A stretch of DNA of 62,494 bases, filler included, from Globobulimina sp. (lineage: Eukaryota): NCBI GenBank assembly GCA_003354225.1. It is 28 parts of 28 records of this genome, joined end to end, with 100 filler letters (N's around TTAATTAATTAA, not from the genome) between each part and the next. Parts side by side here need not be neighbours in the genome. Positions count along the whole stretch, not along the records: positions 49,189 to 51,323 come from PIVH01008728.1; 27 more parts are not named here. One strand, written 5' to 3'. The notes under the pieces are model-generated. The model saw nothing but the letters and a program-made list of their open reading frames with translations, made no database searches and had not been told where the DNA came from. Positions within the stretch are counted from its first letter, which is position 1. Each line of letters opens with the position of its first letter. A program made the position numbers and the translations under genes. Positions 24,601 to 51,323 of the stretch are shown in pieces.

Positions 24601-26736
24601 CCCGTCCCCAGAAACAGCTATGAGGCCTTGTCACATCCTTTCTTATCAGAAAATTGGGATCATTGTCAATTCATTCATTCTATCCGCTTTTATGGTTATC
24701 GACCCGAAGTGGTTTTTCCCTTGGCGGGTATCACACAGACCCGTCATGTCTGTGGCAAATGAAGCAGCCACGGCCGGGAAAAAAGACAAAAAAGACAAGA
24801 AGAAATCGAAAATACCCATCTATAATCCATTAATCAGTGACGGTCGATTCCTATATGCCATCATCCCTGAAAAGCCCATCAAAACCGAACAAGAGGCAAA
24901 GTTGAACCAATCCAACAAAGACGACGATGAAGAAGACGACAGCCCGCATATTTATATCCGACTCAACGCCTTCGATCCAATGTGCCAATTAGAGCATTGT
25001 AACAGTATCCTATTAAAACGCCCGTTGCCCTCTGAAAACCATGAAGTTGTGTTAGATTTCAACCCCTCCGATGAAACTAAACGCAAATTGAACAAATCCC
25101 AATCCACATCCAATCCGTACACGTATGACCCGTACGGCGGTGGTCGCCGCAGCCGATATTCGAGCAAATACGGCAACGTCAACTCCTCTTCCATCGACTT
25201 GGGCTGTCCGCCACAATTAAATTTCAACGGCTCATTGACCATGGAATGCTATTTTAAGTTCGAAAACGACGAAATGAAGCGCATACCACAGGAGATATTC
25301 TACCACGGCGATGGCAATTATTGGACCTTTCTGTACATTCAAAACAACACTATTTACGCCGGCTGCAATACGCCGTTGGGCTCCACCAAAGGCCATTGCG
25401 CCATAACCAGTGCAGTCAATGTATTGGAATGGACCCATTTGGCCGCCAGTTACGACGCCTCGGACGCGATTTGGCGCATTTATATCAACGGACAGCTGTC
25501 TAATCCAAACGCGCGGACCGGTAACATCCGGGCGGGTCCGAAAGCGTCCACAGCGGCGTGGATCATCGGCAGTGTCCCTACAAAACCGTTTTTCGGCAAG
25601 TTGTGCGAAGTGCGCCTATGGTCCTGTGCCAGGCCGGAGGAGCAGATCAAAAAGTGCATGAAAGTGGGAAATATCAATGTGTTGAACGACATTCTGAACG
25701 ATACTGCTTTGCGAGGGTACTGGCCGTGTCATGACGGAGTGGGGTTGTTAGTGTCTGACATCTCCAAATATAAACACTATGGTTTTGTCAAGGACTGTTC
25801 ATGGAAGCTGGGCGAAGCGCGTCCGTTTAAGTGCAATTATCATAAACCCGACGTGTTGGCTATGGACAAAATCAACGACTCCGCGTCGACGGATGGCAAA
25901 GACGCTGCGGATAAGGATAAGTTGAGCGACATTGAGAAGAAATCGGTGAAGTCGACGGATAATAACCGCATCAGTAAGACCGAGGGCGTCATTAATAACA
26001 AAAAATATGTATTGCAGTCGTTTGAGAAATCTACGTGTTCGAAGGCTGTGTTCTATACAAATGGCGAGATTTTGGTGATCGCCTATCCGTCGTTTACGTT
26101 TTGGAACAAGTCGTACCGCGGCGTGGCGCAGAAATTTGAGCTGACCAACAATTCCGGTTTGTTGACGGACGAGATCGAATATGAGGATTTCAGCCAGATA
26201 CTGTGTGCGACGTTTGTCAACGACTGGAAGTCGATGTGGGTGTACACCAAAGCGGCGCCGCACGCGTCCTGCCATACCATGGCGGCGCCCACTACGATAT
26301 CGCGATGGCGGCGGCAGCGGATGAAGTATAAACAGGATACGAGTCAGAAAAGGAAAACATTGACCACCAAACAGTTGGCTACAAAGCAGTATTATGGCCT
26401 GCGGAATATCGATTATTTTGATGACGAGAAGGAAGTGGAAGAGGAACAGTGTTCGAGTGGAGCTGATGTGATATCGATGGAGGAGCAAGGTTCCATTACG
26501 AACATTAAAGCTTTGGCCAACATATTGATCAAATTGGACGAGGATACGGAGTCGCTGCGCAGTGTGGACACGAATGAGGCCATGCCGTTATCGCTGAGTC
26601 TGCCGTTTGGTGTGGATTTGAATAAAAACACATTCGAGACTTTGTTGGAGATTGCGGAGAAATTAGCGGATGAATTTTATGCTGTGACTGACGAGAACAC
26701 GGATATTAAAATCACGCAAGTTCGGATGTTGACGTT
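24601..26736 (+). CDS. Fragment of a large protein with a LamG/concanavalin A-like domain (possibly a HECT E3 ligase-type giant protein)
   Basis: Long ORF running off the contig 3' end. LamG-like motifs LTMECYFK, WTHLAASYD, IYING, FFGKLCEVRLWS, LRGYWP. The E3 assignment is a guess from the SDGRFLY and FYTNG segments. Confidence 0.65.
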
Positions 26737-49088: not shown

Positions 49089-49188
49089 NNNNNNNNNNNN
49101 NNNNNNNNNNNNNNNNNNNNNNNNNNNNNNNNTTAATTAATTAANNNNNNNNNNNNNNNNNNNNNNNNNNNNNNNNNNNNNNNNNNNN

Positions 49189-51323
49189 CATTAACCAGAG
49201 AACGGCCATTAAAGGCCCGGGAAAAACATTAAAAATGAAGGCTTTAGCTGATGTTGTGGAATTTTTGAAGCGAAAAAATGGTCTGGCAGATCCACAAAAA
49301 CTCGAACTCGGGGGTAATCAGCTAGAGTCGTGTTTTATTATTTCTTTGGCAATGTGCCTTTATGCAGAAGAATGTAAACTCTATCAAATGAAATTTTACA
49401 GACATGGAAAGTTTCCTATAGGACTTGAAAAACTGGTGTGCAAAATTTATTCTGGTATCGGAGTTGAGATCGATACGCCTATTTCCGTTGAACATTATAC
49501 AATTATAAATAACTATCTACAGCGAGAGCACAAACGGAATCTGATTGTATACAACATTCCCAATGAATCATCTAAAATCCACCTGATCTATAAAGGTATG
49601 CCATGTCAACCTAATCCAATTCCTGTTCTCACGGCGCAGGGTCACTGTTGGCTCATTACGAATATGAATTTGTTCTTCTCTTCAAAAGGATATTGCTCAA
49701 TATGCTACACACTACTGGAAAGCAAAGCCAAATACCGTCACCAATGTATAAAGAAATGCTCGAAATGCCTGACCAAAATGTGTGCAACATACAGGAGAGA
49801 AAAAGCAAATATAGCCAGTCATCATTGTAAAGATTGTAATGGCTTCTTTGCGGATGTCTTCTGTCTGAACCAGCATCGGCTCCAGGATTCTGATGGTACA
49901 AGTTGTTGCGACAAATTCAAAAGGTGTAGAACTTGTGGAAAAAGAGTGAAAGCGATTAATATACTTCCACATGATCACTATTGTTTGAAGTCAAAGTGTT
50001 TTAACTGTAACCAATGGGAAGATGTCAATCACCAGTGTTATCTTCGAGCACCTGCCGAACGCATGTGCATCAATAACAAAACCCGTCTACTTTATTTTGA
50101 TTTGGAAACACGACAAACTGCAGAAGGTTACCTGGTCCCATTTATATTTTGTTTGATACAAACATGTAACAAGTGTGCCGATGATGTGGATGGGGATCTT
50201 TTTTCATATCGCGACTGTTGTGAGGCTGAACGGACAAAAATATGGATTGGTGACAATTGCATGAAAGATGCTTGTCGGTACATATTCTACAATCAAAAAC
50301 TAGCAGGGTCTGTTCTTATTGCGCACAATCTCAGTGGTTTTGATGGGTTTTTCATCTATGAAACATTGGTTACAATGGGAAAGCAACCAACTATTTTAAC
50401 CAGATCGAACAGAATACTTAGTCTCCAATGTGGTCTCAATGTGAAATGTATATGCAGTTTAAGCTTTTTCCACTGCAAACTTGAAAAACTACCAAAGATT
50501 TTTGGGCTTCATTGTGAAAAACAGTTTCTTCCTCTGAAACTCCTAGAGAACCTAGATCCAGGAAAAAACATAAAAGGCTGGGTGCCACCTCCGGATGTAT
50601 GGCAACCAGAATTGATGAGCGCAGAAAGAAGAGCGCAATTTGAGGTCTATTATGCAGATCTGAAATCTTCACCTGAAAAATTTAATTTTTTCAATTTGAT
50701 GATGGGTTATTGCGCTATGGATACAAAAATTCTATATCAATCGTGTCAAATTTTTCGTGTAATGCTAATCAGGTCAGTAACTTTAAATTTGTCACCACAC
50801 TTCACCCCCATATGCGCCGCCTTAGAGGCGGCGCATCCCCCTCCCAGACCGGGCAACCTTAGAGGTTGCCCGGGGCAGGGTTGGCCCAGGGCAGCTGCTG
50901 CCCTGGGAGGGGGCAGCCACTCATAACAAATATGCATTCTCTTTAATTTATACACATTGTCGTTTGTTTCAGAGAGACAAACATTTGTCCATTTACTTCA
51001 GGCTGTGTTACATTAACAGGTCTTACAACAAAGGTAAGATTACCTAATGCACCATAAATGGTGTTATGTTCGAACATACGAGATTTGTGTACTCTGTAAC
51101 TATGCTTGTTATTTTTGTTCCATTTTCGGTGTGGAGAAAGAATTTTCTAAGTTATGATAGACAAACACGGCTCACAACAGTTGCCTTAATTCCAGACATG
51201 GACCTCAGAGAGAAGCTTCAAGTATGTATAACTAACATATGTGTCATTTGAATTGTGATAATTTCCATTTTTTTATTTCAGGACAAGCAGTCGCTTCTTG
51301 CCCGTTGTTATATTAGCTGGTTG
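49189..51323 (+). mobile_element. Polinton/Maverick-type protein-primed family B DNA polymerase gene fragment with three predicted introns
   Basis: Cys/His-rich N-terminal region, ExoI YFDLET, ExoII IAHNLSGFDGFFI, LEKLPKIFGL, ExoIII YCAMDTKIL. Removing 50773..50972, 51034..51128 and 51222..51281 restores IRETNICPFTSGCVTLTGLTTK-VWRKNFL...VALIP...DKQSLLARCYISWL, the segment expected after the exonuclease domain. Confidence 0.85.
50812..50913. repeat. GC-rich nested inverted-repeat (multi-hairpin) element in polB intron 1
   Basis: Perfect 11-bp stems 50812-22/50826-36, 50849-59/50863-73 and 50837-47/50903-13, plus the 11-nt-arm inverted repeat 50885-95/50897-907. Confidence 0.95.

Follow-up and report, generated by a model that had tools for sequence, protein, structure and literature searches.

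Repeats that form GC-rich hairpins are a textbook case of selfish DNA in organelles and bacteria. In prokaryotes, REP/BIME elements and REPINs are intergenic; they are clustered, imperfect GC-rich palindromes whose caps are conserved and whose hairpins are believed to be the substrate of a dedicated enzyme. MITEs, the non-autonomous DNA transposons, are small, non-coding, multi-copy, foldable and often intronic. The 3' end of a Helitron carries a GC hairpin 10-12 nt before CTRR, and insertion takes place between A and T. Parvoviral (AAV-type) T-shaped terminal hairpins consist of two small GC-rich arms with 3-nt loops and an enclosing stem. Double-hairpin elements were reportedly described by Paquin and colleagues in 2000 from the mitochondrial DNA of Allomyces and chytrids.

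Repetitive hairpin-forming elements have also been described for sponge mitochondrial DNA (PMC2800124), and palindromic repeats of the Volvox carteri organelle genomes have copies in the nucleus (Smith and Lee, 2009; PMC2670323). The GC clusters of yeast mitochondria (e.g. GC42) are, in the account of Wu and Hao (2015; PMC4478555), organellar and mostly intergenic, with a proposed AG target duplication; that account treats their mechanism as unresolved, both DNA- and RNA-mediated routes having been proposed. A clean nuclear example would make a tractable system in which to ask what recognises and copies such hairpins. Here we compare with these systems a block of GC-rich hairpins in a polB intron of Globobulimina sp.

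Results

The block and its host gene

The stretch that we analysed (62,494 nt, hereafter the window) consists of 28 separate contigs of ~2.1 kb each with N/TTAATTAATTAA linkers between them, so that only one contig is relevant here (Table 1). It carries part of a polB gene of the protein-primed type, the kind typical of self-replicating elements. That the block lies in an intron of this gene, as a preliminary description of the locus had proposed, is borne out by a family search (PF03175, E = 2e-9), by the GT and AG ends of the intron, by the continuation of the protein in exon 2 and by three homologues (P0001-P0003; 82, 64 and 49% identity to the large exon), all of whose ORFs stop at the exon boundary. 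The spliced reading frame is open in the standard code, and nuclear-type genes are found on contigs neighbouring the block contig in the window. Because intron 2 ends in CG and not AG, the window's polB copy may be defective. As a separate observation, ORF calls run into the block in P0001, in P0004 and in the window's own 593-aa ORF; such blocks extend ORF calls into introns, which is a warning for annotation.

Table 1. Coordinates of the polB contig and of the parts of the hairpin block within the window
Feature	Position	Strand	Remarks
Contig with partial polB gene	49189..51323	+	2135 nt; N/TTAATTAATTAA linkers on both sides
polB large exon	49190..50772	+	Cys-rich region and DNA_pol_B_2 3'-5' exonuclease part; ends ...AATCAG
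Block-hosting intron	50773..50972	+	Spliceosomal-type; GT at 50773, AG at 50971-72; 200 nt
Left edge	50803..50811	+	CAC and C-run (CACCCCCAT); common to all full copies (alignments)
Hairpin A	50812..50836	+	ATGCGCCGCCT-TAG-AGGCGGCGCAT; 11-bp stem, TAG loop
Spacer 1	50837..50848	+	C-rich, varies among copies; holds the 5' half of the proposed outer stem
Hairpin B	50849..50873	+	CCGGGCAACCT-TAG-AGGTTGCCCGG; 11-bp stem; identical in window, L092 and L093
Spacer 2	50874..50884	+	GGCAGGGTTGG; L092 and L093 have 3 nt fewer
Hairpin C	50885..50907	+	CCCAGGGCAGC-T-GCTGCCCTGGG; 11-bp stem, 1-nt loop, CAGCTG centre
Right edge	50908..50918	+	G-run and CAGCC; G-run can pair with C-runs
AT-rich tail	50919..50935	+	May belong to the insertion
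polB exon 2	50973..51033	+	61 nt; ETNICPFTSGCVTLTGLTTK; continues the protein; also 61 nt in L092 and L093
Intron 2	51034..51128	+	Terminal CG in place of AG
polB exon 3	51129..51221	+	93 nt
polB exon 4 start	51282..51323	+	Contig stops before the intron that bears the block in L092 and L093

The GC content of the block (50803-50918) is 72.4%, against 29.8% in the other 84 nt of the intron, 39.3% in the contig and 35% in the window. A scan of the whole window for perfect hairpins (stem of at least 9, loop of at most 8) returned nine loci, and only hairpins A, B and C have a stem GC above 0.5, the remaining six reaching at most 0.44. The three perfect 11-bp stems are thus as first described, and they are the only GC-rich hairpins of the window. 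The motif CCTTAGAGG occurs twice against 0.05 expected, a count reached in none of 100 shuffles. As single-stranded DNA, 50800-50945 folds at -49.8 kcal/mol (shuffles -27.1 +/- 3.0; z = -7.55; 0 of 200 as good). The outer stem of the preliminary description, CCCCCTCCCAG (50837-47) with CTGGGAGGGGG (50903-13), is present in the window copy as 11 bp and does compete with the base of hairpin C in the minimum-energy fold; it is not conserved, since only a C5/G5-6 run is left in L092 and L093 and the consensus fold of the alignment lacks it.

The block has no coding capacity. An ORF in the reverse frame across it had no protein match, the L092 ORF reading into the block (P0004) retrieved only itself in a protein search, and an exhaustive HMMER search with the block translation returned P0004 and an unrelated tandem-repeat protein (P0005) only. 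No Rfam family matched: the best score of the window block was 18.2 bits against a gathering threshold of 70 (mir-343), and that of the copy L115 (see below) 25.5 against 43. Four scans of viral contigs returned nothing related to the block. The two-cap pattern gave 91 loci there, all of them coding or tandem repeats except L086, a locus with three copies of one unrelated hairpin; the 21-mer of hairpin B and hairpin C gave no match, and a degenerate hairpin pattern gave one chance match. A plasmid collection yielded one chance match of 27 nt.

Other copies and their positions

A metagenome scan gave two matches, both to the whole block, in polB paralogs on public contigs (L092 and L093). Among 185,579 prokaryote genomes there were 21 matches, one of which (L108, here L115) has the whole block, with four hairpins; the other 20 are isolated single hairpins, where a hand estimate puts about 17 as expected by chance. 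L115 is on a contig of eukaryotic origin that was wrongly binned into a bacterial MAG (G001). This genome has a second block copy (L116), a truncated copy (L117) and a polB family as well, its PF03175 match being on one contig only (C799). The block copies of G001 adjoin an abundant unrelated repeat and lie outside any recognisable polB; polB exons 5-6 of L092 found no match in G001, and neither the downstream repeat of G001 nor its segment next to the block occurs in the window. Searches of G001 and of the window's 27 remaining contigs with a covariance model (R1) gave no more copies. The comparisons below are of five full or partial copies only.

The intron that hosts the block is the first one seen in the window and the fourth one seen in L092 and L093. 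Without the block, the first intron is 52 nt long in L092, 47 nt in L093 and about 50 nt in a third paralog (L123), and 47-52 nt is the range of the paralogs at this position. The introns of L092 and L093 are of a 45-54-nt GT..AG type, except the one that holds the block; this one measures 154 and 159 nt and would be ~46-51 nt without the block. In these two paralogs the block sits at the same place within the same intron, which requires inheritance under very strong constraint, gene conversion confined to the block or insertion at a specific site. Each of the three copies from the window's organism lies in a polB intron in sense orientation, an arrangement equally compatible with a polB-specific function and with a generic repeat; the apparent association with polB introns may be genuine or may reflect ascertainment. 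The block lies 20-39 nt after the GT donor in the three polB copies, and L115 has GTGAG 23 nt upstream. The protein P0001 ends in a read-through tail, ...CPHVPP*, and L093 in ...TPHAPP*, whose stop codon is the loop TAG of hairpin A; the P0001 tail matches the window only from ~50936 onward. These protein tails suggest that P0001 may represent a fourth polB-intron copy, located in the same intron but shifted 25 nt towards its 3' end.

At the edges of the block, a CAC/TATACAC junction was seen at four block junctions, one of them inferred. The hexamer ATATGC at 50810-15 and 50930-35, which had been put forward as a target duplication, does not stand: its left copy has its ATGC inside hairpin A, and the hexamer is absent from the other copies. 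The longest flank words shared across the block in four copies are 6, 6, 5 and 4 nt, lengths reached by 871, 688, 1412 and 1972 of 2000 shuffles, the first figure being that of the window; ATATGC is thus at chance level.

Conservation of the stems and age of the block

Across the copies, 98.8% of 165 stem cells are paired, against 35-50% with slid partners. Two pairs carry compensatory changes: pair 4 of hairpin A is C:G in the window and A:T in L115, and pair 4 of hairpin C is A:T in the window and G:C in L115 and L116. One further change turns G:C into G:T. Moreover, hairpins A, B and D, the last being an additional hairpin ahead of the conserved GGGTTGG of spacer 2 in L115 and L116, differ pairwise at 3-5 stem positions, all compensated. 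There are three hairpins in the window, L092 and L093 and four in L115 and L116, the variation being located in the spacers. The preliminary description had staked its reading on further occurrences or covarying homologues, and both were found. Inverted (flip/flop) arms, which it had proposed to look for, were seen in none of the five aligned copies.

Between L092 and L093 the exons are identical at 593 of 774 positions (76.6%) and the non-block intron sequence at 169 of 332 (50.9%), against 102 of 106 (96.2%) in the block. Four-fold sites agree at 23 of 61 (38%), and at that rate the probability of at least 102 identities in 106 is 5e-38. The window block is identical to L092 at 100 of 105 and to L093 at 101 of 106 positions (~95%), though its intron is a different one. 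Judged from these alignments, the block is probably young relative to its hosts, being near-identical amid saturated flanks.

Block variants in run X1

Of three listed runs, X1 is the one that contains the contig (share 0.54); X2 and X3, from the same sample, yielded no contig aligned to it, which is no evidence of absence. Three distinct X1 contigs that overlap the block show 8, 5 and 1 differences, at word depths of 40.8, 206.5 and 82.4, against 4.45-5.7 for the three contigs with an exact match to the flanking exon. Within spacer 1 the X1 contigs have indels at 50841, 50842 and 50848 and changes at 50844. There are hence at least three variants of the block in this run, where distinct variants are distinct copies and depth is not copy number. 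An 855-nt X1 contig (record 5), whose match to the window begins at 50803, passes from unique flank into the block; the left junction of the window itself is not independently confirmed, because no X1 contig covers 50650-50789. Several other bins of the contig likewise had no X1 cover. No strand-switch joints were seen within the block in X1 contigs.

Discussion

The block is probably one copy of a young, dispersed, non-autonomous repeat made of several GC-rich hairpins, the counterpart in nuclear introns of the GC clusters and double-hairpin elements of organelles. We base this on its repetition at non-homologous positions, its near-identity against saturated flanks, its kept stems and its variable number of modules. 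Among the options raised in the preliminary description, that of a small mobile double-hairpin element is the one that fares well, with a repeated unit at non-homologous sites and stems kept by compensatory changes. The family would be non-coding and GC-rich, about 110-140 nt long, with three or four perfect 11-bp hairpin modules per copy: modules of the type NNNNGCNNCCT-WAG-AGGNNGCNNNN and one CAGCTG-centred hairpin, spaced by short C- or G-rich stretches and bracketed by a C-run and a G-run. It would have entered, at two or more positions, pre-existing spliceosomal introns of ~50 nt in an old, multi-copy polB family; a related organism has it beside other repeats as well. Its behaviour would resemble that of the selfish GC clusters and double-hairpin elements in organelles, with nuclear-type introns as its location. 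Since no transposase, terminal inverted repeat or target duplication can be defined, mobility is inferred from distribution only; spread could take place at the DNA level, or via an RNA copy, with a structure-recognising enzyme supplied in trans.

Food for thought is how an organism whose introns are held near 50 nt tolerates an intron of triple length. The insert might persist since splicing removes it and since, compactly folded, it draws its own ends together, which would bring the effective intron length back near the ~50 nt of this organism. A self-folding insert of this kind is a testable answer to the tolerance of intron length. The system has few copies and very short spliceosomal introns, and paralogs can supply filled and empty sites of the first intron.

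A bolder version, which we hold to be unlikely, is that of a new kind of nuclear mobile element: a hairpin cassette, defined by its structure and selective for its site, perhaps inserting beside (T)ATACAC/CAC motifs in introns of a self-replicating gene family that encodes polB. It might be moved by the nuclease-like or zinc-finger domains of the polB family, or by way of single-stranded DNA that the protein-primed polymerase makes. It could then be the parasite of a parasite, with ~95% identity kept among paralogs and species in spite of saturation at neutral sites.

Functional constraint would offer a different account, in which the block is a cis-element tied to polB and under purifying selection, either a structured intronic RNA (one that controls splicing, persists as a stable RNA or is a precursor of small RNAs) or a DNA site bound by proteins of the polB-encoding mobile element, such as its zinc-finger or nuclease-like domain. 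The confinement of the three window-organism copies to polB introns in sense orientation, with a fourth suggested by the P0001 tail, agrees with this account, as do conservation far above neutral, the presence of a polB family in the block-bearing G001 and the single non-Watson-Crick change, a sense-strand G:T that RNA allows. Nevertheless, we find it doubtful: the position varies between the first intron seen and the fourth, three paralogs have a block-free first intron, the G001 copies lie beside an abundant unrelated repeat with no recognisable polB, the acceptor of intron 2 is broken in the polB copy of the window, and near-identity in primary sequence with few compensated changes points to recent common origin and not to long-term structural selection. 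Passive transfer seems quite improbable, that is, that the hairpin family is native to a high-copy replicon such as the mitochondrial genome and the intron copies are inert fragments. Published accounts do describe GC-rich hairpin repeats as a typical feature of organelle genomes rich in AT (PMC2670323; PMC4478555), and the commonest block variant of run X1 has a depth of 206.5 against ~5 at the locus. Yet L092, with clearly nuclear-type polB exons, itself has a depth of ~41, so that high depth need not mean an organelle; no block-bearing organelle contig was seen, and the three, perhaps four, polB-intron copies are intact with perfect stems, where the nuclear copies of Volvox are given as often degenerate (PMC2670323).

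An introner-like origin, in which the insertion itself made the intron, would agree with the sense orientation of the block in short introns, with its place 20-39 nt past the GT donor and with the GTGAG of L115. It is very unlikely, since the first intron exists block-free in L092, L093 and L123, the fourth minus its block is a normal intron of 46-51 nt, and the splice sites lie in AT-rich flanks outside the conserved block. A replication origin, a resolution site or the parvovirus-like terminal hairpin of a linear element, all suggested earlier, could draw on the window copy, in which an outer stem surrounds two small arms, and on the host gene, a protein-primed-type polB typical of self-replicating elements. 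We consider these functions extremely unlikely: for an origin or a resolution site there is no positive evidence, the block is internal to an intron, its position differs between paralogs, its outer stem is not conserved and none of the five copies has inverted arms; strand-switch joints within the block and relatives in the viral-contig scans were likewise looked for and not seen. Finally, an artefact of assembly or amplification, the other outcome foreseen in the preliminary description, is scarcely credible. The locus depth is low (~5) and no X1 contig bridges the block junctions of the window itself; against this, the same block lies within AT-rich flanks in two other public records and in the genome of a third project, and the 855-nt X1 contig joins unique flank to block.

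Comparison with known systems

REP/BIME elements and the block are both clusters of GC-rich capped hairpins. A bacterial family of this type would be expected to have many prokaryote copies; the single true match in the prokaryote set is a eukaryote-like contig, the other 20 of the 21 being single hairpins. For a Helitron, no CTRR was seen at the expected distance past hairpin C, or past hairpin A on the other strand, when the window, L092 and L093 were inspected by eye. With MITEs the block shares small size, lack of coding and several copies at non-homologous sites; it differs in consisting of several short independent hairpins where a MITE is one long foldback, its end complementarity is a C-run/G-run of 5-6 nt in place of terminal inverted repeats, and the flank words given above show no target duplication of fixed length. 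The likeness to parvoviral hairpins is limited to the two small GC-rich arms that a stem encloses in the window copy. That stem is short (11 bp), rivals hairpin C and is confined to this copy, there is no long A-A' stem, and viral context and a terminal site with flip-flop are equally lacking.

The organellar systems come closer. As in organellar GC clusters and double-hairpin elements, the block has GC-rich hairpins in AT-rich DNA, spared stems and a variable, composite number of units; its residence is in introns of nuclear-type hosts among nuclear-type genes and not in an organelle. Like the double-hairpin and sponge elements, which we compare by description only, it has at least two adjacent GC-rich hairpins as a mobile-looking unit in introns or spacers; those elements are mitochondrial and the block is not. 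With the yeast GC clusters, as portrayed by Wu and Hao (PMC4478555), it has in common short GC-rich hairpin units in AT-rich DNA that are many-copy and non-coding, substitutions that spare the stems, and units that merge or shuffle into composites. Unlike those clusters, it resides in GT..AG spliceosomal-type introns of nuclear-type genes and has no definable duplication. The Volvox repeats, in the description of Smith and Lee (PMC2670323), are again a hairpin family with conserved short loops, a preference for the non-ORF parts of introns and nuclear copies. Their nuclear copies are read there as inert, often degenerate transfers from the organelle (PMC2670323), whereas the copies of the block have perfect stems and are 95-96% identical.

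Results

The hairpin block and its host gene

The GC-rich hairpin block lies in an intron of a DNA_pol_B_2 polymerase gene (polB; PF03175, E = 2e-9), and its three perfect 11-bp hairpins (A, B and C) are exactly as given in the preliminary description. Nine perfect hairpin loci were found in the whole window (stem ≥9, loop ≤8), with GC-rich stems only in hairpins A, B and C, and CCTTAGAGG occurs twice versus an expectation of 0.05. The block has a GC content of 72%, compared with 30% for the remainder of the intron; the window mean is 35%. The DNA fold of this region is 7.5 SD better than dinucleotide shuffles, none of 200 equalling it.

The window, 62,494 bases in all, is not one chromosomal stretch but 28 contigs, each 2134-2137 bases long, ordered by size and joined by N linkers (~100 nt) around TTAATTAATTAA, so adjacent genes need not be genomic neighbours. 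On the remaining contigs are ordinary eukaryotic genes, such as those for a protein kinase, an SNRNP200-type helicase, GCFC, SLC12, PP2C and VPS9, and one tRNA. One contig of 47.5% GC with a 711-aa intron-free ORF (Laminin_G_3) is unlike the AT-rich remainder, and may be another organism's DNA or a transferred gene.

Coordinates of the features discussed in the text
Feature	Sequence	Position	Remark
Contig with Laminin_G_3 ORF	window	24601-26736	
Prokaryote-style ORF call	window	49145-50926	
Contig bearing the block	window	49189-51323	
Block-bearing polB intron	window	50773-50972	200 nt, GT..AG
Match to FCHHT of P0001 tail	window	50787-50801	
Hairpin block	window	50803-50918	
Downstream polB exons	window	50973-51033, 51129-51221, 51282 onward	in register with paralogs
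End of polB intron 2	window	51127-51128	CG
Nuclease-like insert	L092	353-757	same exons in L093
Fused polB exons 2 and 3	L123	372-520	intron 2 absent
Abundant modular repeat	L116, L115, L138, among others	1-1075, 423-882, 1998-2435	
Three 9-bp hairpins	L086	23803-24449	

The ORF calls of three database homologues (82, 64 and 49% identical) all terminate at the exon boundary of the block-bearing intron, and the window protein continues in the downstream exons. Prokaryote-style ORF calls in the window, in the homologue P0001 and in P0004 (the L092 ORF running into the block) extend past the exon and across the GC block, which has few stops; the database 'proteins' of this family therefore end in translated hairpin sequence. 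The other two homologues, P0002 and P0003, have C2H2-like zinc fingers at the N-terminus. Where intron 2 of the window gene ends in CG, the paralogs L092 and L093 have AG; the window copy may be a pseudogene, or CG a base error at low depth.

Further copies of the block

Public metagenome contigs were scanned for hairpin B followed after 5-14 nt by the beginning of hairpin C, with both hairpins required exact; the two matches, L092 (PJEL010020513.1) and L093 (PJEL010051687.1), are both paralogs of the window polB. The intron that is filled in the window is empty in L092 (52 nt) and L093 (47 nt), and their block lies three introns further on, after ...LEVHG. Given that their introns measure 52, 50, 50, 154, 48, 48 and 54 nt, and 47, 50, 48, 159, 45, 47 and 54 nt, respectively, the block-bearing intron is a normal ~50-nt intron plus ~108 nt. 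The spliced frames, standing on our own intron boundaries, are open across ~260 codons. In both paralogs, a nuclease-like insert (GREHRIGNKR...LEVHGCFWHAH) separates the exonuclease motifs from the polymerase motif DLNSLYP; Pfam gives only a weak hint for this insert (SfsA RE domain, E = 0.05).

Among prokaryotes (one genome per species, degenerate A/B hairpin pattern) there were 21 matches, 20 of them isolated single hairpins in unrelated genomes, close to a chance expectation estimated by hand. The remaining one is a whole block on L115 (also L108), an 882-nt contig of a "Gammaproteobacteria" MAG; the stem-loop pattern of the preliminary description thus recurs in L092, L093 and L115. This MAG also contains six fragments of the window's polB family and two further block copies, L116 at a contig end and L117 truncated inside hairpin C. 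Its contigs C409, C264, C232, C233, C686, C292, C62, C799 and C746 are eukaryote-like, with intron-bearing polB fragments, tRNA and AT-rich repeats. Evidently, its block and polB contigs are mis-binned or contaminating eukaryotic DNA from a related organism. Two exons are fused in its polB paralog L123; members of the family therefore differ in the introns they contain.

After the block, the three MAG contigs that carry it have ~145 nt confined to them and then modules of a very abundant repeat (...TTTCAGCTCCRACCGATTATTATTGRCCGAGTTATGG...; 46 matches in the MAG), which is also found on C746 close to a decayed polB N-terminal ORF and is absent from the window. Here the block may be the end of a longer element or may have landed beside other repeats. 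The viral contig L086 (IMGVR_UViG_3300025669_000020) holds three copies of one hairpin capped by CCT-CTA-AGG (GTGATCCCTCTAAGGGATCAC), whose sequence has no relation to that of the block.

The only listed sequencing run with the window's polB contig may be the assembly's source, and is thus not independent. Word depth is 4.45-5.7 in those of its contigs that are exact matches to the flanking exon. Three others overlap the block with 8, 5 and 1 differences at depths of 40.8, 206.5 and 82.4; being distinct variants, they imply at least three further block copies in the sample, depth itself not being copy number. The commonest variant matches the window only up to hairpin B (50874), with no contig of similar depth beyond. 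One of these three, 855 nt long, passes from a unique flank into the block and so rules out an assembler artefact for the block family. The suspicion of an assembly or amplification artefact, tested as far as possible, is not supported. A loose end is identical to L092:230-259, so L092-type sequence is present in the same run.

Conservation of block and stems

L092 and L093 are 76.6% identical in exons, 50.9% in other intron sequence and 96.2% in the block. Their amino-acid identity is 210/257, with 81%, 93% and 56% identity at codon positions 1, 2 and 3 and 23 of 61 four-fold sites shared. They are old paralogs whose silent sites are saturated and which have been under purifying selection. 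The block is far too similar for a neutral passenger of that age (P ~5e-38 at the four-fold rate). The window block, in a different intron, is just as close to them, at 100/105 and 101/106 positions.

In an alignment of five copies, 98.8% of stem cells are paired versus 35-50% with partners slid. Two stem pairs changed on both sides (pair 4 of hairpin A, C:G to A:T; pair 4 of hairpin C, A:T to G:C), and one further change is G:C to G:T. Coming from five related sequences, this covariation is suggestive and not statistically strong; 9 of 500 column shuffles reach its score. Inside a single element, hairpins A and B and the additional hairpin D found in L115 have the frame NNNNGCNNCCT-WAG-AGGNNGCNNNN in common and differ at 3-5 stem positions, all compensated. 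The copies in the window, L092 and L093 have three hairpins each, and those in L115 and L116 have four. It is the spacers that vary in length and sequence. The common sequence begins with CAC and a C-run just 5' of hairpin A and ends with a G-run and C-GCC 3' of hairpin C.

Discussion

We consider the block probably to be a GC-rich multi-hairpin repeat that is young, dispersed and non-autonomous, and that would correspond, in nuclear introns, to the GC clusters of yeast mitochondria. Of the earlier proposals, that of a small mobile hairpin element survives. The outer stem thought to enclose hairpins B and C is present, and in the minimum-energy fold it competes with hairpin C, but only its C-run and G-run are left in L092 and L093, and the consensus fold retains the three hairpins without it. 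Hairpin order and loop orientation are identical in all copies, with no flip/flop inversion; a parvovirus-like terminus thus finds no support. A replication origin and introner, Helitron and bacterial REP readings, each tested as far as possible, were not supported either. ATATGC can be discarded as a target duplication: on the left it runs into hairpin A, no such repeat accompanies the remaining block copies, and a shared 6-mer turns up in 871 of 2000 shuffles. Mobility is only inferred, as neither an enzyme nor an inverted repeat nor a duplication came to light.

The main rival is that the block is genuinely tied to the polB family. Indeed, all copies from the window's organism lie in polB introns in sense orientation, L092 and L093 at the same spot. 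This distribution may be an ascertainment effect, because the scan required exact hairpins B and C, which the commonest variant of the run may not match; we regard a true tie as unlikely. Further insertions may be read from P0001, whose ORF tail in its first intron is SVFCHHTLFSLHIYTCPHVPP*. Its FCHHT matches the window's left flank, FSL-IYT-C the translated right flank (...YAFSLIYTHC...), and PHVPP* resembles the L093 tail TPHAPP*, which stops at the hairpin A loop TAG. Judging from these tails, P0001 would lack a block at the site filled in the window and would carry one of its own ~25 nt further 3', at a site unoccupied in the window. If true, two separate insertions would have occurred in one intron of two paralogs.

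As a dispersed repeat, the block could persist in introns by being removed with splicing, and folding of the pre-mRNA would bring its ends together. In yeast, splicing efficiency has been linked to secondary structure within introns that makes the effective branch-point distance shorter (PMC2536676); a similar effect may apply to block-bearing introns. The block is of value for being so extremely conserved beside flanks that are saturated, and for a possible specificity for polB introns. In yeast mitochondrial GC clusters, substitutions spare stems, units merge and shuffle, and the mechanism is described as unresolved (PMC4478555). The block also parallels the double-hairpin and hairpin-forming elements of other mitochondria (PMC2800124). 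On the probable reading it would be a variation on known selfish hairpin repeats. A further parallel is with Volvox organelle palindromic repeats, which favour introns and appear in nuclear DNA too (PMC2670323).
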